Source: a virus. From it: a DNA stretch of 64,000 nucleotides. The translations under genes were made by a program, and so were the position numbers. The notes under the pieces are model-generated. The model did no database searches, had not been told where the DNA came from, and saw nothing but the letters and a program-made list of their open reading frames with translations. The stretch spans positions 1-64,000 of the IMG/VR virus record IMGVR_UViG_3300034196_000019; one strand, 5' to 3'. Shown here piece by piece: positions 9,670 to 63,772 of the stretch (its first letter is position 1; the number at the start of each line of letters is the position of its first letter).

Positions 9670-11025
9670 TTATTTTACCTCAATCCGACAAAATGTTGTA
9701 TCACCAAGAATGTCTTTCCATGCTTTAATCATAGCATCATACAAATCTTGTTTTGCACTCTCTTTAACCAAAGCGCTATCATGGTAGCAAAGGATTGTAT
9801 GGCCTTTCTCTCCCATTGCACCAACAATGTTCATCATAATTCTACTGTCGATGTTTTGCAAGACAATCCCACCATCTTTAAAGAAATAGTCTTCAATCAG
9901 GTCGTTATGATATTGGACGGCTGTAAGCACTCTACCATAGTCCACTGAGCCTGTCATTGCATAAAACAACTGCTCCATTTTAACTTTATCACGATCCTGT
10001 CGTACTTTATTACCAAGAGCGTATGCAGCAGCTTTCATATCCTCAGAATTCATACCAATAAGGATTGCTAGCTTTGCCAAAGTACGTGTTGGATTATGTA
10101 CCTTCCCTGTTGCTGATTCAATCTCTTTCTTTAGCTTTTCATCTACTTCGATAAATGACAAGTCAGCATCATATGGGGAGAAGTCCTCTCCGAGAACATC
10201 GTAGACATTCAGACCATCATTGTACATCTGCTGATAGCAAATACTTGGGTGAATGGCAGAATAATCTAGCTCAACAACAGGCTCACCATCGATCATTAGG
10301 GAGGATGCCCGTACATGCTGAGGAAGAAGCTGGACACCACCACCAAGTGTATAGAGACGACCACCTGTGTTCACATCACCAGAAAAGATACGTCGATACG
10401 CAACATCAGCAATTCTACGGCCATCGAATGTAATGTCTGCACCTTCTAGTTTACTGTTCAACATTTTCACCTCTTGTTTAATGCCTTTGAATCCATTGAT
10501 ACCACGAGTGGGCATTAAGTATCTTGTCTTACGTTTGCGGATGATAGCAAGATCGTTCTCATCTAAGTCTTTCCACAAATTGTATTCTGTATTAACGTTT
10601 TCCCACATATCTAAAGTTCTGTCTCTAAACACCATACAGGACGGAATGGTTTCATCTGGAACACGATTACCTGCTACCACCTTCCAAGATTTCACATAGC
10701 CTTTATAAACATCAATATAGCCGTTTTGCTCAAGGTATTTTACTAAACTCTGCACCTTCCTAAATCCAATCTTCTGTTTGTTACCTGTATAAATATCTTG
10801 CCTCATGCTAAAGACAAATCCTTTAGCGTTCTTCTTGATTGCCCTAGCGCTGTTGCTAATCCACCATCTTACGGCTTCATTCCACTTATGTCCAGTACGA
10901 TCTTGTATTTCTTCAATAAGCTTTCTGTAGTATTTTGATTCATGAAAGAACACATAGCTGCGTACACAGGATAGGTTGACAGTATAGGCATCTGAGTCTT
11001 TCATATTAGCTAATTCATAGATCAA
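9670..11025 (-). CDS. Minimal family-A (PolA/T7-RNAP superfamily) polymerase-like protein
   Basis: GGRLY, motif A VELDYSAIHP, motif B RTLAKLAILIGMN, motif C YHDSALV; no exonuclease motifs seen. Confidence 0.7.
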   Translation of the reverse strand: MIYELANMKDSDAYTVNLSCVRSYVFFHESKYYRKLIEEIQDRTGHKWNEAVRWWISNSARAIKKNAKGFVFSMRQDIYTGNKQKIGFRKVQSLVKYLEQNGYIDVYKGYVKSWKVVAGNRVPDETIPSCMVFRDRTLDMWENVNTEYNLWKDLDENDLAIIRKRKTRYLMPTRGINGFKGIKQEVKMLNSKLEGADITFDGRRIADVAYRRIFSGDVNTGGRLYTLGGGVQLLPQHVRASSLMIDGEPVVELDYSAIHPSICYQQMYNDGLNVYDVLGEDFSPYDADLSFIEVDEKLKKEIESATGKVHNPTRTLAKLAILIGMNSEDMKAAAYALGNKVRQDRDKVKMEQLFYAMTGSVDYGRVLTAVQYHNDLIEDYFFKDGGIVLQNIDSRIMMNIVGAMGEKGHTILCYHDSALVKESAKQDLYDAMIKAWKDILGDTTFCRIEVK

Positions 11026-12491: not shown

Positions 12492-15400
12492 ATGAAACGA
12501 GTGATTGAATACACCTATCGTACATTTGATATTGGTTGTGGATGCTGTAGTGATTCATCTTCTGAATATGATCTATTTGAAGACTGTCAAATTATAAGTT
12601 GGGGGAACCAGTGTGGATATTGCTCCGACGAGAAAGACTTGCGGAGCGAGCTATCTCACCTTGAACCATTTGAGATTTCAAAAGATAGTACTTATTACTA
12701 GGAGATTGATATGAACGTACTTCAGAAGATAACAGACATCAAGATTAACCTTATGAAAAATAGAGGGTCTGATCCTACAGTTGCTTACCTCGGGAGGATA
12801 GAGATTGAATACATCAAAGAACATCTTAATTATTTTACTGAGAAAGTTGGCAGCACAGACGAAGATATGCTCCTTGGATTGAAATTAATCTGTGTTGACA
12901 GAGAGACATACCTAGCTGTACACTAGCCTTCAAACAAAACCCGTAATTTCAACGTAAAACCAATGCTAAAAGACACGTTCTCTGTCTAGGGTATGCAGAC
13001 GTACTGGGTGTGAAGTAGCGTGTCTTTTAGTGGTGATAAACATAGGATAAAGAATATGAGTCTCTTTAACAAAGAGTTGCTAAATAAAGCTAGCTTCAAA
13101 TGGCAACAGCTTGACGGTAAGACGCTTAGGCTTAAATCTTTATTGGACGAAGAGTCTCAACAAGTTTGTACTTGCGGCAGTACAGAGGATGGAGTAGTAT
13201 ATTTCATTGCAATTGAAGATATTATTAAAACTAATCAGGAGAACACAATTGATTAATAAAGCCTATTTACAATCTCTCACAGAAGCTGAACGTGAGGAGA
13301 TGCGTGCTAAAGCTGCACAATCTCGCCTTGACAAGAAGGCAGCATCTGCTAATATTCAGGCTATGGCTGATGAGAACTACTGGAGGGAACTCTGCTCATC
13401 ACTAAATGTCCGTATGCCTAGATCTGTTTGCCAGGCATCAGAGCTTAAATATGTACGTCGTATTGGTGATAAGCTTGGTGTAGATATCAATACATGGGTT
13501 AAAGATGTTTGTGGTTGCAAAAGTCTTAAGGAAGTGGCAGAATTGAACCCTAACATTGGAGCAGTTGGAATGGTAGGATTCTTCATCGAGCATTGTAAAG
13601 AGGTACTAGACGGTAAATTTATTGAGACACCAAAGGAGAAGAATGATGAATGAAGTTAAACGATATACATTTAAGGGTGCGGCAGGTTCATACGTCTATG
13701 CTAACGACTTTGATAAGGTAATTATCGAGCGTGACGCGGCGCTGGCTTTGAGTGTAGAAAAGATCATGATTGATGTTGTCCCAGGGTATTACGGTATGGG
13801 AGAAGAGGTTTACGCAAAGTCAATTACAGATATTGAAAATCTCCTTAATAAACTTTGTGATGCTGGTGAGCTGCTTCAGGACCGGGTAGATATTTTAGAG
13901 TCTCTTCTATATAAATACTATAGAAATTCTGATGTATGTGCATTTATGGCAAAAGATATTGAAAAAGAACTTAAGTTGGTAAGAAAATAGAATGATTAAA
14001 TATTCCCAATATCTAGAAACTACTTCCCACTTGCAGCCTTTAAGCTCTGGGAATTCCACTCTCACATGGTATAAAGATTTTGTTGTGAATAATACTCTGC
14101 TGCGTTATAGTGGCCTCGTAGATAGCGAATATGTGGATGTCACTGCATTGCAGTCAGAAGAGAATATTACTCGGGAGAATAAATAATGAACATCTCAAGA
14201 GAAGCAAGAGAACTTCTAGCTTATGAGTATATGAACTCAAGAAATGAAGGTCCATATCCAACATATGCAGATCTTGCACTGAGCGGTAATGGTAGTTTTA
14301 CTTTATGCTCCCTACGAGCAATTGATAAAGTTATTCAAAGAGCTAAACCATTAGAGGAAGCTATTATACTCCTTGACAGAGTAGTTACAGAGGTGGGGAG
14401 GAGTATCACTCCAGAGCTGCGATCAGAAATTGATAATATTCTAAGTAAAACTATGTATTCTGGAGAATAACAATGCTCAAGAAATGCTGTTTTGATTATA
14501 AGGCTAAGGAGTTTCCTCTTAATATTGCTGAATATTTCAAGATGATTGAGAATTATATGTGCCCTGTATGTGGAAATGGAGAAATTAAATGAGTATGAAT
14601 CTTGCGCTTAGGTTCGGAAGTATTACAGATTACGATACTCCATATCAGACACCAACATGGTTAACAAATCTGGCACTACATTCTAAAGATACGACGGATA
14701 CGTATAAGAATTATTTTATTGAAATTCACGGTGGTCTTAATGAAGAACTAGTTGAAAACTTTAGCAAGATAGACCAAAGGATTACTAACGGCTATCACTG
14801 GATTATGGTGTAATGTATGAGTGCTGGTGCTGGACAGAATACGGTTGGATACACGGACAAGACTGTGGCACAATATGTAATGGAAAGTATACAGTCTTTA
14901 GACCATATCTAGACTGGAGCTACAGCGAATATTCATATAAATTTATTGTAGAATACGAAGCTCAATTGTGGTATGGTAAGAATATTCCTGAGCATTGGGC
15001 TTTGGAACCAAAGAATAAGTGGAGAATTTAATATATGAAAACACAAGAGGCTATTAATTATCTCCTAACACGAGCTAAAGAATATGGATACACAGAGAGT
15101 ATGATTAAAGGGCTTGCTCCTGATTTGAAATACTTGGTTGAAGGACTAGAGGATTGGGACACTGATACTCTTGATGTACTGTTTGATGATTTGTTTTAAA
15201 GAGGAGTAAAGTATGTCTGAACCAAAGAAGAAAGATATTGTAACTATTCTGGTTAGCTATGAGGAATTTATTGATTATACCTTTATCCACCCAGGAAGCT
15301 TTTACGTTCGTATGGCTACAGGAGACTTTATCTTCTTTAAGACATCTGATCGTAAAGTAGCACAGCAAGAAATTGATAACATGTTAGGTAAAGGCCGTTA

Positions 15401-19633: not shown

Positions 19634-20866
19634 TTGTCTAGTCAAGCTGAAGCAATCAAGCTTATTGAATCTGGCGTGAATGTATGTCTTATTGGGGCAG
19701 CAGGAACAGGGAAAAGTTGGATTATTAATAAGATCACTAACAAGCATACTCTCACTGTAGCCCCTACGGGTATTGCAGCCTTGAATGTCAAAGGACAAAC
19801 AATCCATAGGTCATTCGGGCTACCAATTGGTATTGCTACACAAGACGAGAAACACCGTATTTCAGCTAAAGTAAAGAAGGTATTGGCAAGTAAACACCTT
19901 AAAAGGCTGGTGGTTGACGAATTTGGGATGTGTCGTGCTGATATCCTAGACCTTATTGATTTACGTCTGAAACAAGCTAGAGGGAATACACTTCCTTTCG
20001 GTGGTATTCAAGTTGTGCTAGTGGGAGACCCAAGTCAGCTTGAGCCAATCGTTAATCAGCGAGAAAGCAGTCTATACTTCAAGCAATATAGTACGCCTTA
20101 TGCATTTGGTGCTCACTCGTGGAACTTCACCCCTATTGTCTTAGACAAAGTATATCGACAAGAGAACGAAACACATGTACGTGTACTGCACAGCTTTCGT
20201 GTAAAAGATAAGTGGACAGAGAGAGCCCTGGAGTGGCTAGATGAACAATGTATTCCCTACAATGAAGAGGAAGATATCCTAACTCTTTGTGCTTACAAAG
20301 TGGATGCTGAACGAATAAACAATACGCACTATTCTCAGCTAAGCACAAAGGAGCATATCTATAAAGGGATTACCAATAATTCTAAATGGATGAATGATCT
20401 TCCTGTTCCACAGATGGTACGGCTGAAGGAAGGGGTTAAGGTGATCATCCGTGCTAATGATGTACTTGGAACATATGTCAACGGTAGTCGTGGTACTATC
20501 AAGAAGCTATTTGCTACAACAGCTATTGTCACCCTTGACACAGGCAAAGATGTTGAGGTAGTACAGAACACATGGGAGCAATTTGCATACTCCGCAACAG
20601 CTAAAGGCTTGGCTAAGACTGTAGAACACATGTATGAACAGCTTCCGTTGCAGCTTGGGTACGCCGTGACAGTACATTCATCTCAAGGGCTCACGCTAGA
20701 TCGTTATGCTATTGACTGTGGACGGGGGATGTTCAGTGCTGGACAAGCATATGTTGCACTGAGCCGAGCAAAAGACTTGACACGCATCAGCCTAGCGTCT
20801 AAACTCACTCTGAAAGACATTATTGTCTCACCAGATGTTAAACAATTTTATGAGAGTCTACTATAA
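19634..20866 (+). CDS. Pif1/RecD-like SF1B DNA helicase
   Basis: GAAGTGKS, APTGIAA, VDEFGM, GDPSQL, VYRQ, TVHSSQGLT, YVALSR. Confidence 0.92.
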   Translation: MSSQAEAIKLIESGVNVCLIGAAGTGKSWIINKITNKHTLTVAPTGIAALNVKGQTIHRSFGLPIGIATQDEKHRISAKVKKVLASKHLKRLVVDEFGMCRADILDLIDLRLKQARGNTLPFGGIQVVLVGDPSQLEPIVNQRESSLYFKQYSTPYAFGAHSWNFTPIVLDKVYRQENETHVRVLHSFRVKDKWTERALEWLDEQCIPYNEEEDILTLCAYKVDAERINNTHYSQLSTKEHIYKGITNNSKWMNDLPVPQMVRLKEGVKVIIRANDVLGTYVNGSRGTIKKLFATTAIVTLDTGKDVEVVQNTWEQFAYSATAKGLAKTVEHMYEQLPLQLGYAVTVHSSQGLTLDRYAIDCGRGMFSAGQAYVALSRAKDLTRISLASKLTLKDIIVSPDVKQFYESLL

Positions 20867-22558
20867 ATGCAACTGAATAATAGAAGTATAAATGAAGTAA
20901 TCGATAGGATCAGGCAAGCTGAGATTGAACTAAATATTGCTATAATATATGCACAGGAGCACTGTACACATGGGGATATTGCAGAGTGTGACTATAGCTC
21001 ATCCTATTACAGGGATACATTCCCACCAATTAGAATATGCTTAGGTTGTGGACTTACTGAGGAGGGGTGGGGTTGTGGTTATAGGACCTTGGTAGAGAGG
21101 GATAACCAGCTATCTCCAAGACGAATCTCACGAGATTTGCTATACAAATTGCGTATTGGCAAGATCATCAAACAACAATAATTTTACGGAGGGGTTGGTA
21201 TGAAAGAATCTGTACAGGTAAAAGTTTATAAAGAATACACACTTTGTGAACAGGAAGATTGCTACGGTAAGCTGGTTCAAGTGTCTGATCACCTAGCGAT
21301 GATGCACTATGTTCTTGAATATCAACATGAGTGTACTAATTGTGGGGAGAAACACTGGCTGGAGTATGTCTCACCTACTACCGTCTATGAGGAGATACAA
21401 TGAAATACCTTACAATTATCTTTCTTGTTTCTTTCCTTTCTGGATGCTCAGGCTATGTAGATGATCCATCGGAGCTTATCAAGCGTCTTAAAGAGTGTGA
21501 GAGTGTTGGGATGAAGTCCCAGATTGTCAGTACAATTAATCAGGATGTAGGCTTTCAAGGCTGTGTACCAAGGAGCACTAAATGAAACCTAGTCTTCCAT
21601 TAACACCGCCCTGCAGAGAGTATAGGTCTATATTTGGCTGTGATCTATTAGTAAATGAATATAAAACAGTAGACTGGTATACACAATTGGGTAAATTGTT
21701 TGATGAATCTCAGCTAGTTACAAAAATTCCTAAGTTCTGGCTATTTAGGTTGTTCATGAGAAAGGATCAGATCCAACTAGAACATTCTCTTAGGGTGAAT
21801 CGTGACATGTGTAGAAAGTTGCCTAGAATTTAATCTTACAGTTAAGGAGTAGTAAATGAACACATACAAAAAAGTAATCACCCTTGTCAAGAGTACAGAT
21901 GGAGATTGGGAAGGACTTTATCTTGATAATGAGCTTTATTGTGAAAACCACAGCTTGCGAATTGAAGACGTATTTGATATCATCAATGACCACGATGTCT
22001 CAGAGGCCAAGTCTTTTGAGGTATATTATGAATGGTTGAATATGGTTGGTAGCCTTCCTAACAAACTTAATGAAATTCCAGAGCAGGAGAAGGTACAATG
22101 AAACAGAAAGTATACGAATATGATGTAATTGATACAGAAGCTGGCTATGCCGTAGACCACGCACGTACCCGGAAAGAAGCTCGTAGCATTATGAAATCTA
22201 ATAAGCAAGTATTTGAAGGACAGAAGTTTGCTATTATTCAGCGTAAATATGCTTTGACAATTGAACGGAAGGTACGGTGATGAATAAACATACCAAAGAC
22301 TTCCTAACAAAACTTGCTATCCTAGTGGAAGAGTATGGTGCTAATATGGAGATTGAGGGAGACTGCTACTCTGGAGGTCCAATGCAAGTCAGTTTTGAGG
22401 TGAATAATCCTCAGACATTTGATGAGCATCTTTACTCTCACGCGGAGTGGACTGATCTGGGATTTCATTGTAACGCTGAGGGAATACGAAAATTAACAGG
22501 AGTAGTTGATGAAGATCAGCATGAGAGATTATACAGAAGGAATGATTCTGCCAAGTAA
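20867..22558 (+). other. Small hypothetical genes (20867-21181, 21200-21403, 21400-21585 lipoprotein-like LSGC, 21582-21833, 21856-22101, 22098-22280, 22277-22558)
   Basis: Coupled ORFs with ATGA overlaps and RBSs. Confidence 0.7.
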
Positions 22559-23201
22559 GAACGGAGGATTATTTAAAATATTAAAGATTAATAGCTATAT
22601 GAATGTGGAGATTGAATTTATGATTATCTTGAAATTCAAAATGACTACAAATTTAACCAATGCGAGACGTGGAACTGTAGGGAACCCTTATGCTATATCT
22701 TGTTGCGGTGTTGGGTTTATAGGTGAAACAGATGGTCTAATAACTACGAATACTCCTGCATATAAGGTATGGTCTAGTATGCTGACAAGGTGTTATAAAG
22801 ACTGCTATATTGGGGCTAAATCTTATTTAGACGTGACTGTCAATGAGACTTGGCATAATTTTACAAATTTTGAGCGGTGGTTTAGAACCAGTCCACGCCA
22901 AAAAGGCTACCAGCTCGACAAAGATATCCTTGTTGAGGGCAATAAAGAATACAGCCAAGATTCTTGCTGCTTTGTACCAAAAGAAGTAAATAGTTTCTTC
23001 AGTCAGCGACACCATAAAAACAGCAAATCTGGCTATGCTGGCGTACTACGGCATAAGAGGGACGATCTTTGGGTGGCGCTGGATGGTAAGGTATACACTA
23101 AAAATCTAGATGAGGCTGTACTTGCACAGAAGAAGTTTAGAGTGGCACTTGCAGAGAAGCTTTATAACGAATATAATGGTCTATTGACCCACGCGTGCTA
23201 G
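22506..23201 (+). CDS. HNH homing endonuclease (C-terminus probably frameshifted)
   Basis: YKVWSSMLTRCY, WHNFTNF, LDKDIL..GNKEYS...CCFVPKEVN; the expected DPRV tail lies in another frame. Confidence 0.8.
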   Translation: MMKISMRDYTEGMILPSKNGGLFKILKINSYMNVEIEFMIILKFKMTTNLTNARRGTVGNPYAISCCGVGFIGETDGLITTNTPAYKVWSSMLTRCYKDCYIGAKSYLDVTVNETWHNFTNFERWFRTSPRQKGYQLDKDILVEGNKEYSQDSCCFVPKEVNSFFSQRHHKNSKSGYAGVLRHKRDDLWVALDGKVYTKNLDEAVLAQKKFRVALAEKLYNEYNGLLTHAC

Positions 23202-26047: not shown

Positions 26048-26260
26048 GTGAGTGAAGGGTCGGCTGACGCCTGCCAGAAATGCGGAACAGGGCTGTATGA
26101 TACATACGTATACGACATAGCAGAGCTAGATGAAGAGAGGAATTGTCCTGGCTGTTCTGCTACATACAATTGGGAAGAACAGGATTATTCTGAAAATAGA
26201 CTGATGTACGGATGGGAATTAGAGTATCTTGATGAATTACCTAAGAGGGGTAAGAAATGA
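26048..26260 (+). CDS. Small zinc-ribbon protein
   Basis: CQKC and CPGC; AGGAG RBS. Confidence 0.6.
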   Translation: MSEGSADACQKCGTGLYDTYVYDIAELDEERNCPGCSATYNWEEQDYSENRLMYGWELEYLDELPKRGKK

Positions 26261-27408
26261 CACGCAAAAGAAAAGAAAGTCTAGTGTACGGGGTTGGTAT
26301 CAATGACGCTGATTATCAAGTGTCAACCAGAGATAAAAACGGTAAGGAGTGGCGTTGTCCTTTCTACAAGACGTGGAAGAATATGCTTGCTCGCTGCTAT
26401 TCTCCAGCATTCCAGAGGAACCAACCTCTGTATAAAGGGTGTTCTGTAGATGAAAGATGGCATCGATTTAGCCACTTCAAATCCTGGATGCTTGAACAAG
26501 ACTGGGAAGACAAGCAACTAGATAAAGACATGAGGTTTGAAGGCAATCAGGTGTATGGTCCTGATACTTGCCAGTTCCTAAGTCGAAGAGACAATGTAAA
26601 AGCTCAGAAGAGGGCTGTATTTGCTATTTATAAGGGGTTCTGGGTACACCTTAAATCTTTCTACAGAGAAGACATCTCTGCTTACACCTACGCATATAAG
26701 AGGGTTTATTATGATAGGCGTATGGATCTTGCGGAGATTGAGGATGAAAGAAAACAGGCTACTCAGGGTGTCACGGTGATGTGGGAGGGTATAGAAACCC
26801 CACTTAAATCTCTCTGTGATTTGTATAGTAGAGATTATGAGGTTATACGAGATAGACTAAATAGTTGGGCAGGAGGCACAGTCTACAGTCGAGTAATCTA
26901 TGATGAAAATCCTTATGTTTCATTCGAGCTTGCTGGAGCCGGAGGGGTGGTGTACCAGTTTAGTAATAAAAATGAGCTGGTAGACTATCTTGGAACTATT
27001 AACATAAGGGTAGATGAATACTTACCTCTTTGTGGTGGAAGTCTTGTTGTGCTTAAGGAGCTTATACGGGACCATAAGCGTACTGATACTAGAACCCTTT
27101 ACACAATAGGAGAGGTTACAGGATACAAGGAATTCTGGTATCGACACTATGAGACTACCGAGTCTAGAGTTACCGAGAACATGAGCAAACATAACCTACC
27201 ATTCGTTGAGGCTGTTCAGTTGCCAATCCAGAGGATCAAACGACTGGTTGTCAATGGTGAGACAATGTTAGTGAAGAATATGTGGCAGTCTTATGGTCTA
27301 GATGCAAAGCTCTGCAATACAATCAGAAGCCAAAAGAAGCTGACATTTATTCAAACTCTCAATATTATGGGAGTACCCATTCAAGGGTTATCGATCCAAC
27401 CCGTGTAA
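26257..27408 (+). CDS. HNH homing endonuclease with long C-terminal extension
   Basis: VYGVGINDA, WKNMLARCY, WHRFSHFKSW, LDKD...GNQVYGPDTCQF. Confidence 0.85.
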   Translation: MTRKRKESLVYGVGINDADYQVSTRDKNGKEWRCPFYKTWKNMLARCYSPAFQRNQPLYKGCSVDERWHRFSHFKSWMLEQDWEDKQLDKDMRFEGNQVYGPDTCQFLSRRDNVKAQKRAVFAIYKGFWVHLKSFYREDISAYTYAYKRVYYDRRMDLAEIEDERKQATQGVTVMWEGIETPLKSLCDLYSRDYEVIRDRLNSWAGGTVYSRVIYDENPYVSFELAGAGGVVYQFSNKNELVDYLGTINIRVDEYLPLCGGSLVVLKELIRDHKRTDTRTLYTIGEVTGYKEFWYRHYETTESRVTENMSKHNLPFVEAVQLPIQRIKRLVVNGETMLVKNMWQSYGLDAKLCNTIRSQKKLTFIQTLNIMGVPIQGLSIQPV

Positions 27409-27417
27409 AATACACTC

Positions 27418-27443
27418 GCCCACCAATTGGTGGGCTTTCTTTT
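27418..27443 (+). terminator. Intrinsic terminator
   Basis: GCCCACCA-AT-TGGTGGGC followed by TTTCTTTT. Confidence 0.85.
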
Positions 27444-27469
27444 ACCTATAGAAATCCTCGCATACCCCT

Positions 27470-28810
27470 TGTATTGCCTAGCAATGAATGTATACTACTT
27501 AAGGCGAGGTAGCATTACTTGGAGACAATCACCAACCCTGCATGAAATTTAAACTCCCTGGAAATTAGCTTTGTATTCGTTGGGTGTTATTGTTTATCTT
27601 GGGGAGCAAATCCTGAGATAGTTCATATTCTATCGTCTCGATAGGAATGGGGCTTGATAGGATGTGCTGGGACAATAGACCCCCTCTATCATAATCGCAA
27701 AATCCGTTGAGCTACTCTATTAGCTCATATACCGACCCCCCAATGCTACGCATTGGCTATATCTATCACTTATTGCAACGCAATGTATTAAGACTATCAA
27801 TGAACTATACTACTTGACTATTATATTCTTCTCTGAATGGACCTCAAGAATCGTCAATTTAACAAGCGGACGGGCATATTGTAGATTATGCGAAGTCTTG
27901 TTACACTTGTAACAGAGGTTTATGCACACTTGACAGACCTTTGTCAACCAATGATAAATCATTGAATAATACTATACCATCAGCATTACTGATAGCTTAT
28001 ACCCTTCCCTTCGTTTACGAAGAACATTCTCCCACTCATAGCATATTATATTCTTCTCAGATAAGAATTGATAATGAATTGTAGCTATTATGTTCTAATC
28101 TTCGATTAGGAAATACAATTGGACAAGATATATTAATTATTGGCGAGATATTCTCTTGTGATGCAAGAAAGTAGTTGATTTAGTTTAGATAGAAAAGTGT
28201 GCTTAACATATCGAGAGAGTAGGGAACATATAAGCAGTAATAATAAGTTACTAACAGTAAGTAAGCCTTATAGAGAGGATATCCCAGGGGTAGATAACAA
28301 TACTCACTGCTATGCAGTGGATAAAGAGCCTATTACCACAAGAATTAGCACAATACAAGAAGGTATTCGAGGAGTGTAAATACTATTCTTTGCATGAGCA
28401 AAGAATAGGAACAATATATCCACAGTTTCACTGCGTAGGCCATATGTTATAAGGCTTTCACTATTATAGAGGTATGGTTATATACAGAGAGGAGTAGCTC
28501 TATATTCTGTGCTGTAGCACAGGACAGTGTAAACTATTGGCGCTGCCAATGAGTGGTGCTGATACATGCCTTGCATGTGATATGAGTAATGCTTTCACTG
28601 CAATGCAGTGGATACAAGAATGTTCCATGTGTCTCACATGAGATAAGATCAAGATCACAAGCTAGAGCTTGGATTTGTGTTGAATCTATTTTTATTTAAC
28701 TGCGACAGCAGGAGCGTATGTGGTGTTATCAAGATCGCAAGATCAAAGGCGTACACTCTCCATTGCCCTGCAATGTGCTTACTCTGTCCAATGCGTTCGC
28801 ATTGAATATA
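27470..28810. repeat. Non-coding array of about 20 short palindromes
   Basis: Examples: CCAATGC-TAC-GCATTGG, CACTGC-(T/A)AT-GCAGTG twice, ACATGC-CTT-GCATGT, CATTGC-CCT-GCAATG; AAGATC tandems at 28645 and 28730. Confidence 0.75.
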
Positions 28811-28874
28811 CATACTCCTCTATCATTCTGATAAAGACAGCTAGAAGTAATTATATCAGACAAATACTGTTGAC

Positions 28875-28899
28875 AAAGAAAAGCCCCAATGAAGGGGCT
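28875..28899 (-). terminator. Intrinsic terminator
   Basis: AGCCCC-TTCATT-GGGGCT followed by TTTCTTT. Confidence 0.8.
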
Positions 28900-29225
28900 A
28901 ATAATTAAATCTTAACAAGATGGGAGAAGTCTCTCCCTAGGTCTTGGAACCACCTACCGGAATTGTGCCAATAATAAACACAGTACTCCATAGGAATTTC
29001 ATTTATAGATTTATAGAAATTCCCAAACTCATCAGTGTGAGTGGCACCTGTGGGGGTTTTCTTATTCATGTCAACAGACCTCGTTAAGAATTTGCAACTC
29101 GTTATAGGCATTATACAGTAACATGTTGTCTGTGTATAAGATAAATGCAGCGTCTCTTGATTCTTCTTCATCAAAGCTTGATATTTCAATCACCTTACTA
29201 TTCAGTAAGAAAATAAGATAATATC

Positions 29226-30429: not shown

Positions 30430-31137
30430 TTAGTACCTCCAGGAGGTTTTTAAACTCTCAAGTGTTTTGTCTCTCAATTCAACCCTATTCCTCTCGTTCA
30501 TCTCATCTCTATCGTCCTGCAGATGCTTTGTGTAAAGCCAATCAATGTCTTGTTGTACGCAGAGGTAAGCTAAGGCCTGAGTCCATTCTTTATCTTTATG
30601 GTCATACCTAATCAACTCGGAACAAACTCCAGTATCCAACAAGATATCAATATCTACCTTCTTAGACCAACCAAATAGACTGAAGATTTCTGTAATAGCA
30701 ACAGCATCTTGATATCTGGACTCAGGAATTAACGAAGAATTGATTGTCTCATACTTATGTTTTGCCATCTCCACAAGCCCTTCAGCCTGGAACACAGCAA
30801 ATGATAACACTGCTCCGAGTAACTGAGTTTCTAGTCCCGTAGGCGCCTTTAACCACTCCCCACGCACCCTATACCTATCAAAGGCATCTAGTAGGAGTTT
30901 CTCTGTTTTCCGAGCGTTATCTGAAGGCATAGACAACACCTTTACAGTAGTTATACCGCTTGCTGTCTCAATATTGCTAACCCTTCGATTAGGATCAGCA
31001 GAGACGCCAACTTTCACCATTCCAAGGGCATTGACTAGGACATATACCTCTTCTTTACTACCTGAAGCGATAGCCTCTTGCAGGTCTCCGCTAAAGCGGT
31101 TTGCTATATCATTAATTTGCTTATAGTCTTCAGTCAA
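30430..31137 (-). CDS. GIY-YIG (T5orf172-type) nuclease
   Basis: VYVL...VKVGVSADPNRRV...E...RGEW. Confidence 0.8.
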   Translation of the reverse strand: MTEDYKQINDIANRFSGDLQEAIASGSKEEVYVLVNALGMVKVGVSADPNRRVSNIETASGITTVKVLSMPSDNARKTEKLLLDAFDRYRVRGEWLKAPTGLETQLLGAVLSFAVFQAEGLVEMAKHKYETINSSLIPESRYQDAVAITEIFSLFGWSKKVDIDILLDTGVCSELIRYDHKDKEWTQALAYLCVQQDIDWLYTKHLQDDRDEMNERNRVELRDKTLESLKTSWRY

Positions 31138-36007: not shown

Positions 36008-36793
36008 TTATTTTACAAGATGTGCATATTGACTCCATGGACCGACAAGCTTGAGTAGCACTGACTTAGCCTTGTTTGTCTTCCAGTCAGATTTAAGCTG
36101 CCTCACGTAGATACCTGTTAGCTCTAGATTGAAACTCTCTTGCACACTCTCTAGGATTTCTTCAGTAGACACATAGAAATTGTCAGCAATAAACTTCTTG
36201 ACTTCTTCGCTCACCTTTAGTACAGATTTGTGTGGTCTAAAGAGTGCTGCATAGTTGTCACCAACCAAGTGATACCTTTTTCTAATAGTGCTAGGAGCAA
36301 AACCTAGTTCTCTGCTGTGCTCAGTCAGGCTGACGAGTTCTCCGTTAACAGTTATCCGAATAGTGTCCTCTTTATTCAACCCCTGCTTTTCTTTCTCAAT
36401 CCAGATGCAGTTCTCTTTAGAGTATCCAAGATTTACATCCTTTCTCTCTATAGACAACCCTGGAGAATAAGTATCTAGCATGTCTTCCTTAAACTTATCC
36501 CAGGATAGCCAACTATCACACACTTTAATACCCCTACCACCATACCTATGATAATACTCACTGCCTTGGTTATTACAACGATCAAGCATTTTCAAATAGA
36601 TATGGTTCAACAAGCTACCAGTGTTACTTTGGTCCCCGTTCCTGCGCTTAGGTAGGTAATCTACGTTGAACCCCTTAAGATACTTCCTATTACACAGCTT
36701 GCAGTAGTTTTGGTAACCATCATTACCTCTTGACCACCTGCTAAACTCTGCAACAGGCTTAGTATCCTTACAACCTGTACACTTTTTATTCAT
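36008..36793 (-). CDS. HNH homing endonuclease
   Basis: CTGC...CKLC, MLDRC, YGGRGIKVC, SIERKDVNLGYSKENCIW. Confidence 0.85.
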   Translation of the reverse strand: MNKKCTGCKDTKPVAEFSRWSRGNDGYQNYCKLCNRKYLKGFNVDYLPKRRNGDQSNTGSLLNHIYLKMLDRCNNQGSEYYHRYGGRGIKVCDSWLSWDKFKEDMLDTYSPGLSIERKDVNLGYSKENCIWIEKEKQGLNKEDTIRITVNGELVSLTEHSRELGFAPSTIRKRYHLVGDNYAALFRPHKSVLKVSEEVKKFIADNFYVSTEEILESVQESFNLELTGIYVRQLKSDWKTNKAKSVLLKLVGPWSQYAHLVK

Positions 36794-44739: not shown

Positions 44740-45282
44740 TTATTTCTCCTGTTTGATTAGAATATCCACCACTTGTTTCCTACGAGCTTTTGTATTCTTC
44801 TCAGGGATTATAGCTCGTTCTTGCAGGAATGCAAGGATTGTTTTGTCCTTTTCCATTTGGATTGCTTTCTTTGTGGCTACGGCTAGCTCAAAGGATACAC
44901 CTTGCTTGTCATGATATGCAAGCGCAGAGTTACACCCTTTACACACGAGCCTCAAATCGTCCTCAGTGACGTACAGAAGACGTTCCACAAACCCCTGGAT
45001 ATCAGAGGTCTTCTGTAGAGAGCCAGCAGGAACAATGTGGTCTACTTGAGCCTCTTTGATTGTGTATTCCTTGTGGCACAGGCAACACTCAAACCCCCAT
45101 ACCGTCTTCTTATAGCCCTTCCCAGGGTTGTCAATTTGCTTACGATTCTTGTTGACTACAGCAATCCTTGTGGGATGTCTAGACCATGCTTTGCGTAAAC
45201 AGCCACGTAAATAGGTGAAGAATGCGGTGGAGTTTTTCCACGGACTGTTAGGACTTTCCCACGGCTCCATTCTCTTAGTCAA
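44740..45282 (-). CDS. HNH endonuclease (core, exonuclease-linked)
   Basis: CCLC, VDHIVP, VCKGCN. Confidence 0.8.
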   Translation of the reverse strand: MTKRMEPWESPNSPWKNSTAFFTYLRGCLRKAWSRHPTRIAVVNKNRKQIDNPGKGYKKTVWGFECCLCHKEYTIKEAQVDHIVPAGSLQKTSDIQGFVERLLYVTEDDLRLVCKGCNSALAYHDKQGVSFELAVATKKAIQMEKDKTILAFLQERAIIPEKNTKARRKQVVDILIKQEK

Positions 45283-57858: not shown

Positions 57859-58452
57859 TTATTTTGTCCAAGGGTACGAAGGAATAAACCTAAAAATCTT
57901 AGCTTCATCAGCTAAGTATGTTCTAGTGAAACAACACTGAATATCTTGCATTTTATCTTCAATTTCAAGATAGTCAAATTGATCAGGCTTGAACCATTCC
58001 CCTTCTAGTCTTCCATCGGAAAATCTTTTGTGCAAGAAATTCTCAACCATTCATGAGTTTTTGTTAAGTTCCCAGAATGCAAGAACAATTACAAGTACAC
58101 CGGCAGCATTCGAAAGAGTCTTAGCCCTATTGATTGGGTCTTTACTGATACCAATTTTAAGCATGCCAGATGGATTCTTCATCAAATATAGGTACTGATC
58201 ATTTGTTACTCCGTATTTTACAGCCCTTTGTTCTTTATCAATCATTTTCTTTCTTACACGTCTTTGCTGTTTGCTAGGCTTCCCAGAGTGACTGCTAAGT
58301 ATTTCAAGCATATTATCTGTAATCTCAAAGTCAGAGTATCTTTTCTTCCAACCCTTACTTAGATCATCAAATCCAAAGATGTATGCCTCAAGTTTTGTTA
58401 CTGCACTCCTTCTATATTCTGTAAGATATTCACTATATTTCATTTTATCCAC
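57859..58452 (-). pseudogene. GIY-YIG (T5orf172-type) nuclease split by in-frame TGA (58051-58053)
   Basis: LYLM...LKIGISKDPINR; KNS*MVENFLHKRF...EGEWF is in one frame. Confidence 0.75.
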
Positions 58453-59183: not shown

Positions 59184-59224
59184 GAGAATTATTCTCCATA
59201 AGTGTACTATTCTGAACGATGTTC

Positions 59225-59303
59225 AGTGTACAAGCCTCTGTACCAGAATGTCAAGCTGTCTTATTGAAATTAACACAAATCTTGGTACAAAAGCTCTGTA
59301 CCA
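59225..59303 (-). promoter_or_regulatory. Promoter with overlapping operator-like repeats
   Basis: TTGACA-18-TACACT (59254-59225); GTACAA-N3/4-CTCTGTACCAG twice. Confidence 0.6.
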
Positions 59304-59685
59304 GTCCGCGACATCCATATTATATATCCTTGGTACGGGACGCACCTGCGGATACTAAAACCAACACAGATATTCCTGACGGAATGCCATAAAATAAAAT
59401 ACAGTCAACACAAATCCAAGCTCTCGCTTATGACCTTGATCTATATTCTGTGTAAACACACAGGAAGTAATTACTCTTATAATACAGATCAAGAGCAACA
59501 TCAAGATCTTTTTGTATTTGTGTTTGATTTTTATCTGTACAGCGTACAGCCTTATATTTTGTGTTGTCCGTAAGGACGCTTGAGTGTTCATGTGCAATGC
59601 ACATAATATACACTATTCATTGCTACGCAATAGGCATACAGCAAGATTCTCCTCATACAAACCATTTCCTTTTGTAACACTCCTA

Positions 59686-59715
59686 TTTACAAAGCAAGCT
59701 ATGTAATGCTATACT
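59686..59715 (+). promoter_or_regulatory. Promoter for fibre operon
   Basis: TTTACA, 18-bp spacer ending TGC, TATACT. Confidence 0.6.
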
Positions 59716-59781
59716 GACTATTGAACACAATCAACATTTACAATAATAATTCCCTACAAATCAAAAGGATAAAACAATAAG

Positions 59782-60384: not shown

Positions 60385-62936
60385 TGTATACATGTATTCC
60401 TGTAGAAGTGGGTGTTGATATTGCATTAAGCAGAGCATTCTTCTTTACCTTTAATTCTCTCACACACTACGCTATGGATCTTGGAAACAATCGTGTACGG
60501 ATTGGACGTAAGATTTCTGACCTTATTGAGATTGTAGAGACTCCAGTAAGTAGCTTTGTTGATGTAAATGGTGTGCCTGTTGCTAGCACATATACAGAGC
60601 TGAATAACTATTTCAATACTAAGAGTGGAAGTGTAAAGGCTGGTGAAGGGATTTCTGTAACTAACAACACAGTATCTGTCCTAGCCGGCGGCCCTAGTAC
60701 TCTTGGTGGGTACAAAGTTGGTACAGGCTTGATTGTAGATGGCAGTGGTAAGCTCTCTGCTAGTGCTGTCAGTGAAGTGACTAAAGTACTTGCTACAGAG
60801 GCTGAGATGCTAGCCTTGAGCACAGAGACTCTGCGACCCTATCGTATTATTCGACTAGACACTAAACGTGTTTATTATCTGAATGCTGGAGATAGTCCTG
60901 CTGTACTGAGTAATTGGTTCACTGGTCCATCTATTGAAACAACAGTACTTAGCTTTAAAGGTCGTACTGGTGTTCTTACATCAGAGTTTGGTGATTATAA
61001 CTTTGATCTTATTCCTCTCGTAGATAAGACTTCTCAAGACTCTTATAAACTTGTAATTGATCAGAATAAACTGTACGTTGAGAACATAGCCACTTCCACC
61101 CGTACTGAAGTGAGCTATGCTAGCTCTATGAGTGATCTTGGTGTACGTCTTACTTCTTTGGAAGATATCGTCTCTAGCCCATCTACTGGCCTTGTTCGTA
61201 AAGTAGGTGATAACCAAGATGCAATTGCTAGCCTGAACAATGCTATCAACAATACTACTACAGGATTGGCTAATCGTGTAGCATCTCTTGAGCAAGCTAC
61301 CCCATCCCCAGGCGCTGACTATGCTCCACAAATTGCAGCATTGCAAGCTAAGGATACTGAACAAGACGCTGTGATTTCTTCTGTGAATAGTAAAGCAGAT
61401 TCTGTTGCCTCAAATAATACAGTTCTTGATCAGCGCGTAACTGCACTTGAGAATATACCATCTGGTACAGATTACTCTACTCAGATTAGTGCTATTGAAA
61501 GCAAGAATACAACCCAAGATACTAGGCTTACATCAGCAGAAGCATCACTATTAAATAAGGCATCTCTAGTCTCTGGTAAAGTGCCATATGAACAGCTACC
61601 AGAATTTCCTGTAGGCAGGAAAGTGAATGTTGCAAACCAAGCTGCTAGGTTGGCACTATCTATGTATGCAGACCTTACTATTGCCTATCAGAGTGATACA
61701 GGAGATGCTTGGGGATTAGATGCTAATGCTAATCCGGCTATCTCTGCAAATTGGTCTAAACTTGGGAATGCTCAAGCTATTGGTGTAGCATCTTTCAATG
61801 GACGTACAGGCCAGATCGGTCCAATGTCTGGTGATTATGATGCAGGTAAAATCTCTGAGCTAGTGGATAAGCGTTTTGTAAGTTCTGATCAAATTACAGA
61901 CTGGAATTCTAGAGAGACAGTCTCTGGTTCTCAGACTAAGGCAAGTGCTGCACAAACAGCGGCTGTAGCTTCTGCTAAGACCTACGCTGATAGCACATTT
62001 ATCCCCATGAGTCAGAAGTCAACAGCAAATGGTGTAGCATCTCTAGGCTCAGATGGTAAAGTTCCAAGTGAGCAATTACCACCCTCTTCTCTTGTTACTA
62101 TCCCACTACTCTCCTATACGGACCGCACGTCTTTACGGGTGGCTACTACTTGGTATGTAAATAACAGCGCATATTTACGTAAGGTGCGTATTGAGGTGGC
62201 ATATGTTATTGGGCTTGGCGCCTCTTTCTTAACGATTAGAGACTCACAAGGCGCTAATATATCCATATTTAATAGCGTTAAAGTTGGCAGTAATATTATT
62301 AACTCACAGATTATTGAAGTGGATGTACCAGCCGGTTATTCATATCAATATACTAAAGGCGCAACAAACCCAGATCGTACAATTGTTCAGTGGTTGGAGG
62401 GGGATTTTACCGAAGGAAGCACATTTGTCCCTGCGTCTCAGAAAGGTATTGCTAATGGTGTAGCCCCTCTTGGAGCAGATAGCAAAGTTCCAGCAGCCAA
62501 CCTACCCACTCCTGTAGATATTAGCGGACTGATCCCTCTTGCACAAAAAGGTGCTGTGAGTGGTGTTGCTCCTTTGGGTACAAATAGCCGTGTACCTTCT
62601 GCTAACCTTCCAACATACCTACCACAAACCAAACGTATCTGGAGGGAGGTTAAAGGACAACGTGTTGTTGGCACCTATTACAAAAACTTATCCGGTAACG
62701 AACAGATTGTCCACGTTCGGCACAAAGCAACCACAACAACGGGTCGTTTCACTCAGATCGTCGTTCGTGCATCTTCGGTATCACAATGGTTTAGCTTTTC
62801 AACCCTGAGTCCTTCGTCTCTTGGCTCTCAAGAGGAGGTTATGGCATCTGTACCCGCAGATTGGGAATATGCTGTGACAAATCAAGGAGGAACCACGGAC
62901 ATCAGCTTGATTGACATTTGGTACGAAATGTACTGA
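60384..62936 (+). CDS. Tail/head fibre protein with coiled coil and repeated modules
   Basis: LGGYKVGTGL.VDG.GKLS, RVASLE heptads, SFNGRTG, three GVA.LG...VP...LP repeats, C-terminal TYYKN...VPA...WYE domain. Confidence 0.8.
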   Translation: MYTCIPVEVGVDIALSRAFFFTFNSLTHYAMDLGNNRVRIGRKISDLIEIVETPVSSFVDVNGVPVASTYTELNNYFNTKSGSVKAGEGISVTNNTVSVLAGGPSTLGGYKVGTGLIVDGSGKLSASAVSEVTKVLATEAEMLALSTETLRPYRIIRLDTKRVYYLNAGDSPAVLSNWFTGPSIETTVLSFKGRTGVLTSEFGDYNFDLIPLVDKTSQDSYKLVIDQNKLYVENIATSTRTEVSYASSMSDLGVRLTSLEDIVSSPSTGLVRKVGDNQDAIASLNNAINNTTTGLANRVASLEQATPSPGADYAPQIAALQAKDTEQDAVISSVNSKADSVASNNTVLDQRVTALENIPSGTDYSTQISAIESKNTTQDTRLTSAEASLLNKASLVSGKVPYEQLPEFPVGRKVNVANQAARLALSMYADLTIAYQSDTGDAWGLDANANPAISANWSKLGNAQAIGVASFNGRTGQIGPMSGDYDAGKISELVDKRFVSSDQITDWNSRETVSGSQTKASAAQTAAVASAKTYADSTFIPMSQKSTANGVASLGSDGKVPSEQLPPSSLVTIPLLSYTDRTSLRVATTWYVNNSAYLRKVRIEVAYVIGLGASFLTIRDSQGANISIFNSVKVGSNIINSQIIEVDVPAGYSYQYTKGATNPDRTIVQWLEGDFTEGSTFVPASQKGIANGVAPLGADSKVPAANLPTPVDISGLIPLAQKGAVSGVAPLGTNSRVPSANLPTYLPQTKRIWREVKGQRVVGTYYKNLSGNEQIVHVRHKATTTTGRFTQIVVRASSVSQWFSFSTLSPSSLGSQEEVMASVPADWEYAVTNQGGTTDISLIDIWYEMY

Positions 62937-62948
62937 TCCTCCCACATT

Positions 62949-62975
62949 AGCCCAGCATTCGCTGGGCTTTCTTTT
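62949..62975 (+). terminator. Intrinsic terminator
   Basis: AGCCCAGC-ATTC-GCTGGGCT followed by TTCTTTT. Confidence 0.85.
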
Positions 62976-62990
62976 GCTTAAAATAAATTC

Positions 62991-63018
62991 TTGACAGGAT
63001 AAATGAAGGTGGTAAGAT
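62991..63018 (+). promoter_or_regulatory. Sigma70 promoter
   Basis: TTGACA, 16-bp spacer ending TGG, TAAGAT. Confidence 0.7.
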
Positions 63019-63130
63019 TAGCTCCAGAAGCAAAGAAAGTCCTTTGTTTTAAGGCCCTAAAAGATGCGTAATCGTCGCCCCTGTGGGGTACAGTGGTTTT
63101 GAAATTTAAACAGTTTTTGAGGAGTAAAAC

Positions 63131-63772
63131 GTGAACAAACAATACGGTATTGATGCACGACACGAAGCTACTTCTGACTGTCTCTATGCAAAGAGCTTGG
63201 GAAGTACAGCTTTGAATGAATTCCTCTCAAGCTGGCTGGATGAAGGCTATGAAGATATCCATAATAAAGATATGGATTATTATCTTGCATTGAAAGAAAT
63301 CTCAGATAAGCTCAGCACACCAGAATGTCTTTTGGAGAATTGAAATGACTTATTATCTTATTGGTGTAGTACTATCTTTCATCCTTACAGCTCTCACACA
63401 AGTGCTTGACTATTGCTGTGGGGTTGATGTAGATAAGAAAGAAGCTTTTAACTGGTCTCTGATCCTTTCTATTTGTAGCTGGCTTACAGCAGGGCTTGCT
63501 TTATCCTACATTATCAGCTATTATCTCAGCCAGTTTAACTACCCTTGGAGAAATAAATGAACACTGAAAAACGATCTTGCAAACTAACTTCTGCTGGTAT
63601 TGAGAAATGGAGTGTCCATAACATCAAACCTGATCCAAGACAAGTATTCACTATAGAGTATCAAGCTAAAGACCAGTACTGGATCAAAGCATGGTGGGGA
63701 GAGTCTTGCATCCTCGGTTTAGATATGGTAAATGAAGTATTTTGGGATGAAGCTCTTGGAGAGTATGTATGA
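63131..63772 (+). other. Small hypothetical genes (63131-63343, 63345-63560, 63557-63772)
   Basis: GGAG RBSs; coupled ORFs. Confidence 0.65.

Follow-up and report, generated by a model that had tools for sequence, protein, structure and literature searches.

Only for a handful of models, chiefly T7 and T3, is it understood how fixed-end phages recognise their terminal repeats, cut them and duplicate them. In T7, a phage with direct terminal repeats (DTRs), palindromes and arrays of short repeats beside the repeat are tied to end formation, although T7 is a podovirus with a 160-bp repeat, has a single palindrome rather than an array at its concatemer junction, and depends on T7 RNA polymerase (RNAP) for processing. 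We describe here a 1426-bp gene-free, hairpin-rich region at 27445-28870 of a 64,000-nucleotide stretch of phage DNA (the window), which comprises bases 1-64000 of the 90,622-bp IMG/VR virus genome IMGVR_UViG_3300034196_000019. We propose, with evenly balanced confidence, that this is the chromosome-end region of the phage, containing its terminal repeat and packaging sequences, and that the hairpins act on single-stranded DNA. The closest described counterparts are PaP1 (Pakpunavirus) and PAK_P3 (Nankokuvirus), which like this phage are ~90-kb myoviruses; their terminases are related to its own. Terminal run-off sequencing showed the double-stranded terminal redundancy of PaP1 to be 1190 bp long and to contain g156 and g157 (PMC3652863), and PhageTerm predicts T7-like DTR termini "around 63 kb" in PAK_P3, within sequence described as "devoid of genes and transcription" (PMC13510664). 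A Pakpunavirus structural preprint gives 1,143-bp direct terminal repeats. Both PaP1 and PAK_P3 share with the present phage a gene-poor stretch of ~1-2 kb packed with hairpins whose stems are 5-7 bp long and whose loops, of 3-4 nt, are closed by C.G pairs, and in PaP1, as here, this stretch is found where plus-strand and minus-strand gene blocks converge. Neither phage has nucleotide similarity to the region in the window.

The window comes from a lytic myovirus-type genome, judging by its DNA polymerase, primase-helicase, ribonucleotide reductase, terminase and three tRNAs. A sequencing run that contains the whole window is labelled a peat metagenome and may be where the DNA came from. The record ends share a 127-bp overlap, which is an assembly overlap at an arbitrary place and marks a circular assembly; the physical chromosome ends are therefore hidden. 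Genes are on the minus strand in 1-11.5 kb, on the plus strand in 12-27.4 kb, on the minus strand in 28.9-59.2 kb and again on the plus strand from 59.8 kb, and the hairpin region is the junction at which the second and third of these blocks converge. A G+C-rich terminator-like hairpin with a T-run (27418-27435, plus strand, also scoring on the minus strand) ends the plus-strand block, and a second terminator-like hairpin (28882-28899, minus strand) faces inward and ends the minus-strand block. No open reading frame (ORF) longer than 62 aa was found between these inward terminators, and none of the seven small ORFs of the region matched a PHROG family. The first-pass annotation, made from the DNA letters alone, had described a non-coding stretch between convergent terminators, and this description holds. 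The region is preceded by an HNH endonuclease gene (26257-27408), and on its other side are small minus-strand ORFs, a helix-turn-helix (HTH) protein and a T5orf172 nuclease. The minus-strand block, which encodes ribonucleotide reductase, thymidylate synthase, an exonuclease, the primase-helicase and PolA, is collinear with that of Pseudomonas phage vB_PpS_SYP (SYP).

We counted hairpins with a perfect stem of at least 5 bp and a loop of 3-4 nt, and compared the region with 1000 dinucleotide-preserving shuffles of 27445-28870. The region contains 20 such hairpins, compared to 4.0 ± 1.9 in shuffled sequence (maximum 11), and 14 have stems of at least 6 bp (1.1 ± 1.0 shuffled, maximum 6). Twelve hairpins share a GC-N3/4-GC apex, for which the shuffled value is 0.14 ± 0.36 (maximum 2), and 14 have a C.G closing pair (0.53 ± 0.72, maximum 4). 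The enrichment is real and far above chance, which bears out the earlier claim of about 20 short inverted repeats with a shared apex in 12, together with its expectation of a palindrome density above that of shuffled sequence. Each of the twelve GC-apex hairpins listed in that annotation was present at its coordinates, the only qualification being that the stem at 28700 is just 4 bp. Across the whole window there are 206 hairpins, 22 of them with a GC apex, and 12 of these 22 fall in 27473-28804. Stretches of the same size elsewhere in the genome held 12 hairpins at most. A C.G pair closes 14 of the 20 hairpins in the region versus 45 of 249 elsewhere in the genome, and hairpins predicted at -2 kcal/mol or below as single-stranded DNA number 17 in 1.43 kb (11.9/kb) versus 135 in the other 89.2 kb (1.5/kb). 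When 28290-28830 was folded, each strand proved more stable than every one of 100 shuffled versions (z = -4.2 and -4.7). The hairpins are otherwise diverse, with 17 distinct loop sequences among the 20 and stems that have only the GC apex in common.

To place the phage among its relatives we compared TerL, using pairwise tblastn identities for SYP, phiPMW, Pakpunavirus and Nankokuvirus. Identity to the TerL of the window is 84% for an IMG/VR record that we call G001, 73% for SYP, 67% for phiPMW, 66% for vB_PsaM_M1, ~41% for Pakpunavirus, and ~37% for both Nankokuvirus and Felixounavirus. Within this TerL clade, PaP1 and PAK_P3 have mapped terminal repeats. Hairpin densities, calculated for the array region and for the rest of the sequence examined in each genome, are 14.0/kb versus 2.8/kb in the window, 10.9/kb versus 2.1/kb in G001 (locus L003), 10.7/kb versus 2.5/kb in SYP, 14.9/kb versus 2.9/kb in phiPMW, 19.1/kb versus 3.1/kb in PaP1 and 14.0/kb versus 2.8/kb in PAK_P3. 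The convergent junction holds a gene-free array in G001, SYP, phiPMW and PaP1. In G001 this is a 1.2-kb gene-free gap between convergent terminators, where the hairpins at 15024-15240 are spaced 26-29 bp apart; in PAK_P3 it is a 0.9-kb gap (62817-63739) with 16 hairpins and both flanks on the plus strand. Sequence similarity between regions is limited to the terminators, a block at 27685-27705 and a few hairpin units in shuffled order. Shuffling of the modules makes for a poor global alignment between the region and L003. A blastn search of 27300-29000 against 50,697 phage records returned no match, and an exact 20-mer of the shared element had no IMG/VR match. A 19-nt degenerate pattern of the conserved block recovered five stretches, namely G001, three that read as unrelated coding DNA and one without further similarity. 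Metagenome contigs contain patchy relatives at 80-95% identity.

The arrays of several relatives coincide with their chromosome or record ends. In PaP1, g156 and g157 occupy 90557-91481 of the 91,715-bp record, inside the hairpin-dense zone, and by arithmetic the 1190-bp repeat would be the last 1190 bp of the record. Hairpin counts per 500 bp at this end zone are 14, 8, 9 and 4, compared to 0-4 in the other bins scanned. The PAK_P3 termini at ~63 kb match the hairpin-dense gap at 62817-63739. The SYP record is linear, and it starts and ends inside its own 1474-bp junction gap with a 351-bp repeat. The region in the window occupies the position of its relatives' ends, at a convergent plus/minus junction like that of PaP1 and that at the SYP record ends. 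Within the menu of roles offered by the first-pass annotation (terminus or packaging region, origin, decoy array, non-coding RNA), these arrays at the PaP1, PAK_P3 and SYP ends strengthened the terminus and packaging entry, and the non-coding RNA entry lost ground for the reasons given below.

Pairing itself appears to be under selection. Between L003 and SYP, two hairpins with an orthologue in each show three compensatory base-pair changes and none that breaks pairing (TTGTAC/GTACAA versus GTGTAC/GTACAC, and CATTGC/GCAATG versus CTATGC/GCATAG), and a third orthologous hairpin differs in its loop only. The idea that stems change while pairing is kept, with compensatory changes to be sought in relatives, is supported by this pair of genomes. 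In a wastewater relative, the changes listed for 28741-28845 fall in loops and linkers with none in stems, and 36 further differences are outside that list. In the six array regions, C.G (5'-C...G-3') pairs close 68 of 115 hairpins versus 110 of 550 outside; G-N(N)-A loops account for 47 of 115 versus 81 of 550, and the combined C-[GN(N)A]-G type for 31 of 115 versus 14 of 550 (Fisher p ~1e-15). Loops of the GNA type are equally common on the two strands (23 versus 24 in the six regions), which points to DNA with both strands single-stranded rather than to one RNA. The stems appear free to change provided that pairing stays, and the apex retains the most stable arrangement, in which C.G closes a loop of 3-4 nt. 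The mini-hairpin DNAs d(GCGNAGC) and d(GCGNNAGC) described by Hirao and co-workers have this GC-N3/4-GC frame, also closed by C.G. They are unusually heat-stable, nuclease-resistant and poor binders of single-strand-binding protein (SSB), and they occur at phage priming sites and N4 early promoters (PMC13037366). The resemblance is incomplete, in that the sheared G-A loop that defines mini-hairpins is rare in the window, the stems here are longer (5-11 bp), and there are about 20 arrayed copies here versus one or two.

Together, the hairpin enrichment, the positional conservation, the covariation of stems and the coincidence with relatives' mapped ends carry the proposal that 27445-28870 is a chromosome-end region, and the sequence comparisons suggest that the ends of this phage are in, or right beside, this interval. 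The phage would then package a linear, non-permuted genome with direct terminal repeats, and the stretch would serve as the cis-acting end region. Its few conserved words would be candidate sites for terminase or another end-binding protein, and the ~20 short hairpins would act once the terminal region becomes single-stranded. This could happen when the repeat is duplicated through nicking and strand displacement at concatemer junctions, or after the ends have been resected. The hairpins might then form nuclease-resistant folds with poor SSB binding, separate the displaced strands, or mark sites of priming or nicking.

Several results weigh against this proposal. Among the Logan contigs of the two DNA runs listed as carrying this sequence, which give one depth value per contig, one contig spans the region unbroken, and the ends, which were mapped in PaP1 and PAK_P3, are placed here by homology alone; no RNA run was listed. 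The SYP paper gives an assembly without terminus mapping, and 9 of the 12 SYP hairpins lie outside the 351-bp repeat. Loops of the GNA type are not enriched in the window (3 of 20 versus 36 of 249 elsewhere), in contrast to PaP1, where most loops are GNA or GNNA (21 of 37); G...A loops make up 6 of 12 in SYP and 6 of 16 in PAK_P3. The array is absent from Edwardsiella phage ET-ABTNL-9 and from eight of eight other IMG/VR phages of 84-92 kb that carry a 451-aa protein of the window (considered below) and have a TerL 33-53% identical to that of the window. In vB_PsaM_M1 the enrichment is only weak: ~870 bp contain 7 hairpins, and a single 500-bp bin in a different part of the sequence contains 9. 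Finally, the equally short hairpins of phage N4 can extrude from supercoiled duplex DNA (PMC4496689), so a role of the array in double-stranded DNA is possible.

The main rival is a replication origin or single-strand initiation zone, in which iteron-like words would bind an initiator and the hairpins would be entry sites for primase or a primosome on both strands. We consider this explanation improbable but credible, and an origin may coexist with chromosome ends. Mini-hairpin sequences occur at the priming sites of phages G4, St-1 and alpha3 and at ssiA (PMC13037366), the phage encodes its own primase-helicase and PolA, and iteron arrays are present at the matching place in relatives, with TCACAGA found 7 times in G001 versus 0.11 expected and CTTATGA 19 times in the record G002 versus 0.25 expected. 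The G002 copies are all on one strand of a ~1.4-kb non-coding stretch (82596-83986) on the downstream side of the helicase and across the assembly join, and palindromes of the form ATAAG-GTNA-CTTAT are built from them; this stretch is the iteron-style counterpart of the hairpin array. The G002 record ends within its iteron region with an 87-nt start/end overlap and is uninformative on physical ends. PAK_P3 repeats TTGTGTAAC-like words, as judged by eye. In addition, the PaP1 authors used GC skew to assign a putative origin to the end of the genome (PMC3652863), and PAK_P3 Hi-C coverage was read as a single replication start site, whose position is not stated in the text covered. Iteron-type repeats in the window are weak by comparison, as no heptamer is strongly repeated (ATATTCT is the best, with 5 copies versus 0.42 expected) and a 15-nt repeat is present in two copies plus a degenerate one. 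The region has one consensus DnaA box, and the window has 5 versus 7.9 ± 2.4 expected. Cumulative GC skew reaches a peak here, as it would at a point of convergence, and not a trough, but this evidence is weak because skew follows gene direction in this genome.

A second explanation holds that the palindromes are bound as duplex DNA by a phage protein that forms dimers, with the HTH proteins encoded ~0.7 kb away and a nucleoid-protein-like factor as examples; this protein would coat or loop the end region, with a 53-nt element linking it to the second non-coding region of the window. The spacing of 28-32 bp, about three helical turns, is what such an array would show; HTH genes are near both non-coding regions, the 53-nt element is common to both in inverted orientation, and a 16-bp palindrome, TGTTCCACGTGGAACA, is kept in L003 and SYP with a variant in phiPMW. 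Moreover, two gene-free loci of PAK_P3, one of them at the termini, are in contact 3 min after infection (PMC13510664), but the second of these (50.57-51.08 kb) shows no hairpin enrichment and no element common with the end region. A dimer would also fix a half-site consensus, whereas here the stems differ yet pair, and orthologues change by compensatory pairs; the spacer varies between 3 and 4 nt, and favouring C.G closing pairs and GNA loops follows from the thermodynamics of hairpins rather than from recognition by a protein. A duplex-binding array therefore fits the spacing and not the covariation, and we regard it as unlikely. We give still less weight to an RNA explanation, which is very unlikely: the region would specify at least one non-coding RNA rich in short hairpins, which might, for instance, sponge up an RNA-binding protein of the host. 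Structure is strong on either strand, two conserved -10-like TATAAT boxes (minus strand) lie inside direct repeats, and T.G wobble extends 10 of the 20 hairpins on the plus strand. Nevertheless, the terminators on both sides point inward, promoter-like sites number 13 versus 10.6 ± 3.5, and the loop types are equal on both strands. As RNA, a triloop hairpin with only 5-6 bp is of marginal stability. The counterpart in PAK_P3 is the sequence reported to be devoid of transcription (PMC13510664). Rfam 15 identified only three tRNAs in the window at gathering score and nothing at E ≤ 1 in 27300-29000, and a known RNA family was rejected on this basis.

The first-pass annotation had linked the array to N4-type hairpin promoters and suggested that a "minimal polymerase" encoded at 9670-11025 (the 451-aa protein mentioned above) reads them. 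N4 early promoters are hairpins of 5-7 bp with 3-nt loops near the first-injected end, and like the hairpins here they tolerate some variation of the stem if it stays paired (PMC4496689). They are present in three copies, are used by a giant virion RNAP and have a conserved -17 to +1 sequence (-11 purine, -10G, -8G, +1C; PMC4496689), whereas the hairpins here share only GC and no promoter-like sequence, have no genes downstream, and lie between inward terminators. PF00940 had no match in the 90.6-kb genome, where control genomes were equally silent, and no ORF listed beyond 60 kb exceeds 1212 aa. The vB_PsaM_M1 record annotates its homologue of the 451-aa protein as "DNA polymerase", a label for which we found no support; the protein itself has no Pfam match and no named Atlas cluster, its best PDB hit is an unrelated hexosaminidase at E = 0.24, and all eight phages that keep it at 48-70% identity lack the array. 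We rejected the promoter explanation, as neither the defining -17 to +1 sequence nor downstream early genes are present, and consider N4-type promoters read by the 451-aa protein extremely unlikely. As for the protein (minus strand), it belongs to phrog_4756, and in the same eight phages PolA is absent or at most 38% identical to that of the window. Its conservation while TerL and PolA diverge indicates that the gene is mobile or unusually constrained.

Two further candidates were rejected. The injection stop signal of T5, which consists of untranslated repeat regions within the terminal repeat of that phage, is built of sequence-conserved elements around eight paired DnaA boxes, whereas the region in the window has one TTWTNCACA match (27920) and no pairs; T5 is also a siphovirus whose repeat is 10 kb long and whose DNA is injected in two steps. 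A CRISPR array, which the earlier annotation had likewise discounted, was set aside since the hairpin sequences differ from one another, the sole repeated pair (28304/28595) being 95% alike.

The terminal repeats of these phages are already known, but we found no description of a hairpin array within them. A literature search, supplementary files excluded, returned no account of hairpin arrays in the terminal repeats of these phages. The portions covered of the PaP1 and phiPMW papers contain nothing relevant under "hairpin" or "palindrom", and those of the PAK_P3 paper nothing under "hairpin"; according to the PaP1 paper, complicated secondary structures are missing from the genome (PMC3652863). 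We tentatively raise a more specific possibility, which we think has a small chance of being correct: that the array represents an undescribed class of cis element, composed of oriented "T-hairpin-GA" units ~29 bp apart that would fold only in the single-stranded terminal repeat. Such an element might provide a nicking, priming or SSB-excluding platform for repeat duplication, or protect the end that enters first against nucleases of the host and against end- or hairpin-sensing defences. Across Pakpunavirus, Nankokuvirus, Plaisancevirus and this uncultured peat phage, its structure would be conserved while its sequence is not. If the chromosome-end proposal is true, the array becomes a concrete, testable cis element for end formation or protection in a group that includes two genera with therapeutic use, Pakpunavirus and Nankokuvirus. 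The array would also provide a sequence-only signature for locating the true ends of circularly assembled metagenomic phage genomes, and a warning to phage engineers that an "empty" kilobase is under selection. Should the region be only an origin with priming hairpins, the result would be less surprising and still a useful annotation.

Reading the region from left to right, the hairpin ATTGC-CTA-GCAAT (27473-27485) is, with its flanks, homologous to L003 15220-15254, and CTATCG-TCT-CGATAG follows at 27630-27644. Within the best-conserved block of the region (27646-27705, plus strand) are a palindrome, ATAGA-CCCCC-TCTAT, at 27675-27689 and the sequence TCTATCATAATCGCAAAATCC at 27685-27705. In alignment with the SYP record, this block spans the left edge of the 351-bp end repeat, which corresponds to about 27656 in the window, and it is a candidate end-recognition site. 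Two GC-apex hairpins come next, CCAATGC-TAC-GCATTGG (27740-27756) and, 32 bp further on, ATTGC-AAC-GCAAT (27772-27784). An iteron-like direct repeat, TATTATATTCTTCTC, has its first copy at 27819-27833 and its second at 28044-28058, with a degenerate third copy at 28085-28101 (28044-28101 for the latter two); by eye, its reverse complement resembles the repeated SYP words GAGAATGATTAT, and 28054-28069 is identical to SYP over 16 nt. Five hairpins without the GC apex start at 27899, 27949, 28009, 28095 and 28248 (27899-28260), and the consensus DnaA box is at 27920-27928. The hairpin CACTGC-TAT-GCAGTG (28305-28319) is within a 20-nt direct repeat (28304-28323) that recurs at 28595; this repeat and TATTATATTCTTCTC are the two direct repeats reported earlier, and both were recovered. 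The longest hairpin, CTATTCTTTGC-ATGA-GCAAAGAATAG (28383-28408), is predicted at -9.7 kcal/mol as DNA.

A regular sub-array of six hairpins follows (28507-28671), with starts at 28507, 28536, 28564, 28596, 28626 and 28658 and centre-to-centre distances of 28-32 bp. The last of these, CAAGC-TAGA-GCTTG at 28658, is a thirteenth GC-apex hairpin additional to the twelve listed earlier. Hairpins at 28700 (the 4-bp stem), 28761, 28789 and 28821 complete the array (28700-28833), and in the wastewater relative the loop of the 28789 hairpin is 3 nt instead of GTTC. Over the whole window array, 8 of 19 neighbour distances are 28-32 bp, and over the six phages 25 of 97 fall within 25-33 bp, compared to 8.6% for random placement. 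The units are also polar: 10 of the 20 hairpins are flanked T...G and 5 of 20 C...A, versus 19 and 18 of 249 elsewhere, and GA follows 11 of the 20. The units at 28507 and 28789 have the same flanks in opposite orientation. This polarity was not seen in SYP, PaP1 or PAK_P3.

The 53-nt element (28646-28698, plus strand) has an inverted copy at 59390-59442 (minus strand) with 87% identity. That copy lies in the second long non-coding region of the window (59184-59781), which occupies a divergent junction and is the only other hairpin-enriched place, with 6 hairpins, of which 5 are closed by C.G and two lie 29 bp apart (59590-59604 and 59619-59631). This region contains GATC-rich CAAGATC-like words, a T-rich tract and a good sigma-70-like promoter, TTTACA-17-TATACT (~59689-59717), ahead of plus-strand genes, and could serve for early control or as an origin. 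The palindrome TGTTCCACGTGGAACA, perfect over 16 bp, is found in end regions, at L003 14787-14802 and at 294-309 and ~960 of the SYP record. A variant with an ACAT or ATGT centre is present at phiPMW 20515 and 20735, and the window has only a half-match (28617-28627). The palindrome is a candidate protein site. The phiPMW record also annotates "putative phage specific promoters" at 20760-20785 and 20944-20969 (locus L186), inside its hairpin-rich junction region.

The plus-strand block before the array encodes a Dda/Pif1-like helicase (19634-20866, plus strand) with many metagenomic relatives at up to 95% identity. One metagenome scan yielded only relatives at ≤39%. As a single-protein query the helicase found no IMG/VR relative, and as an alignment query it recovered G001 (57%) and G002 (46%). 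It is absent from 17 of 17 IMG/VR phages with the 451-aa protein, which marks this block as a variable module. Free-standing homing-endonuclease-type genes (HNH, T5orf172) are at 22506-23201, 26257-27408, 30430-31137, 36008-36793, 44740-45282 and 58051-58452, and each of the two long non-coding regions is flanked by one T5orf172-type gene and an adjacent HTH gene.

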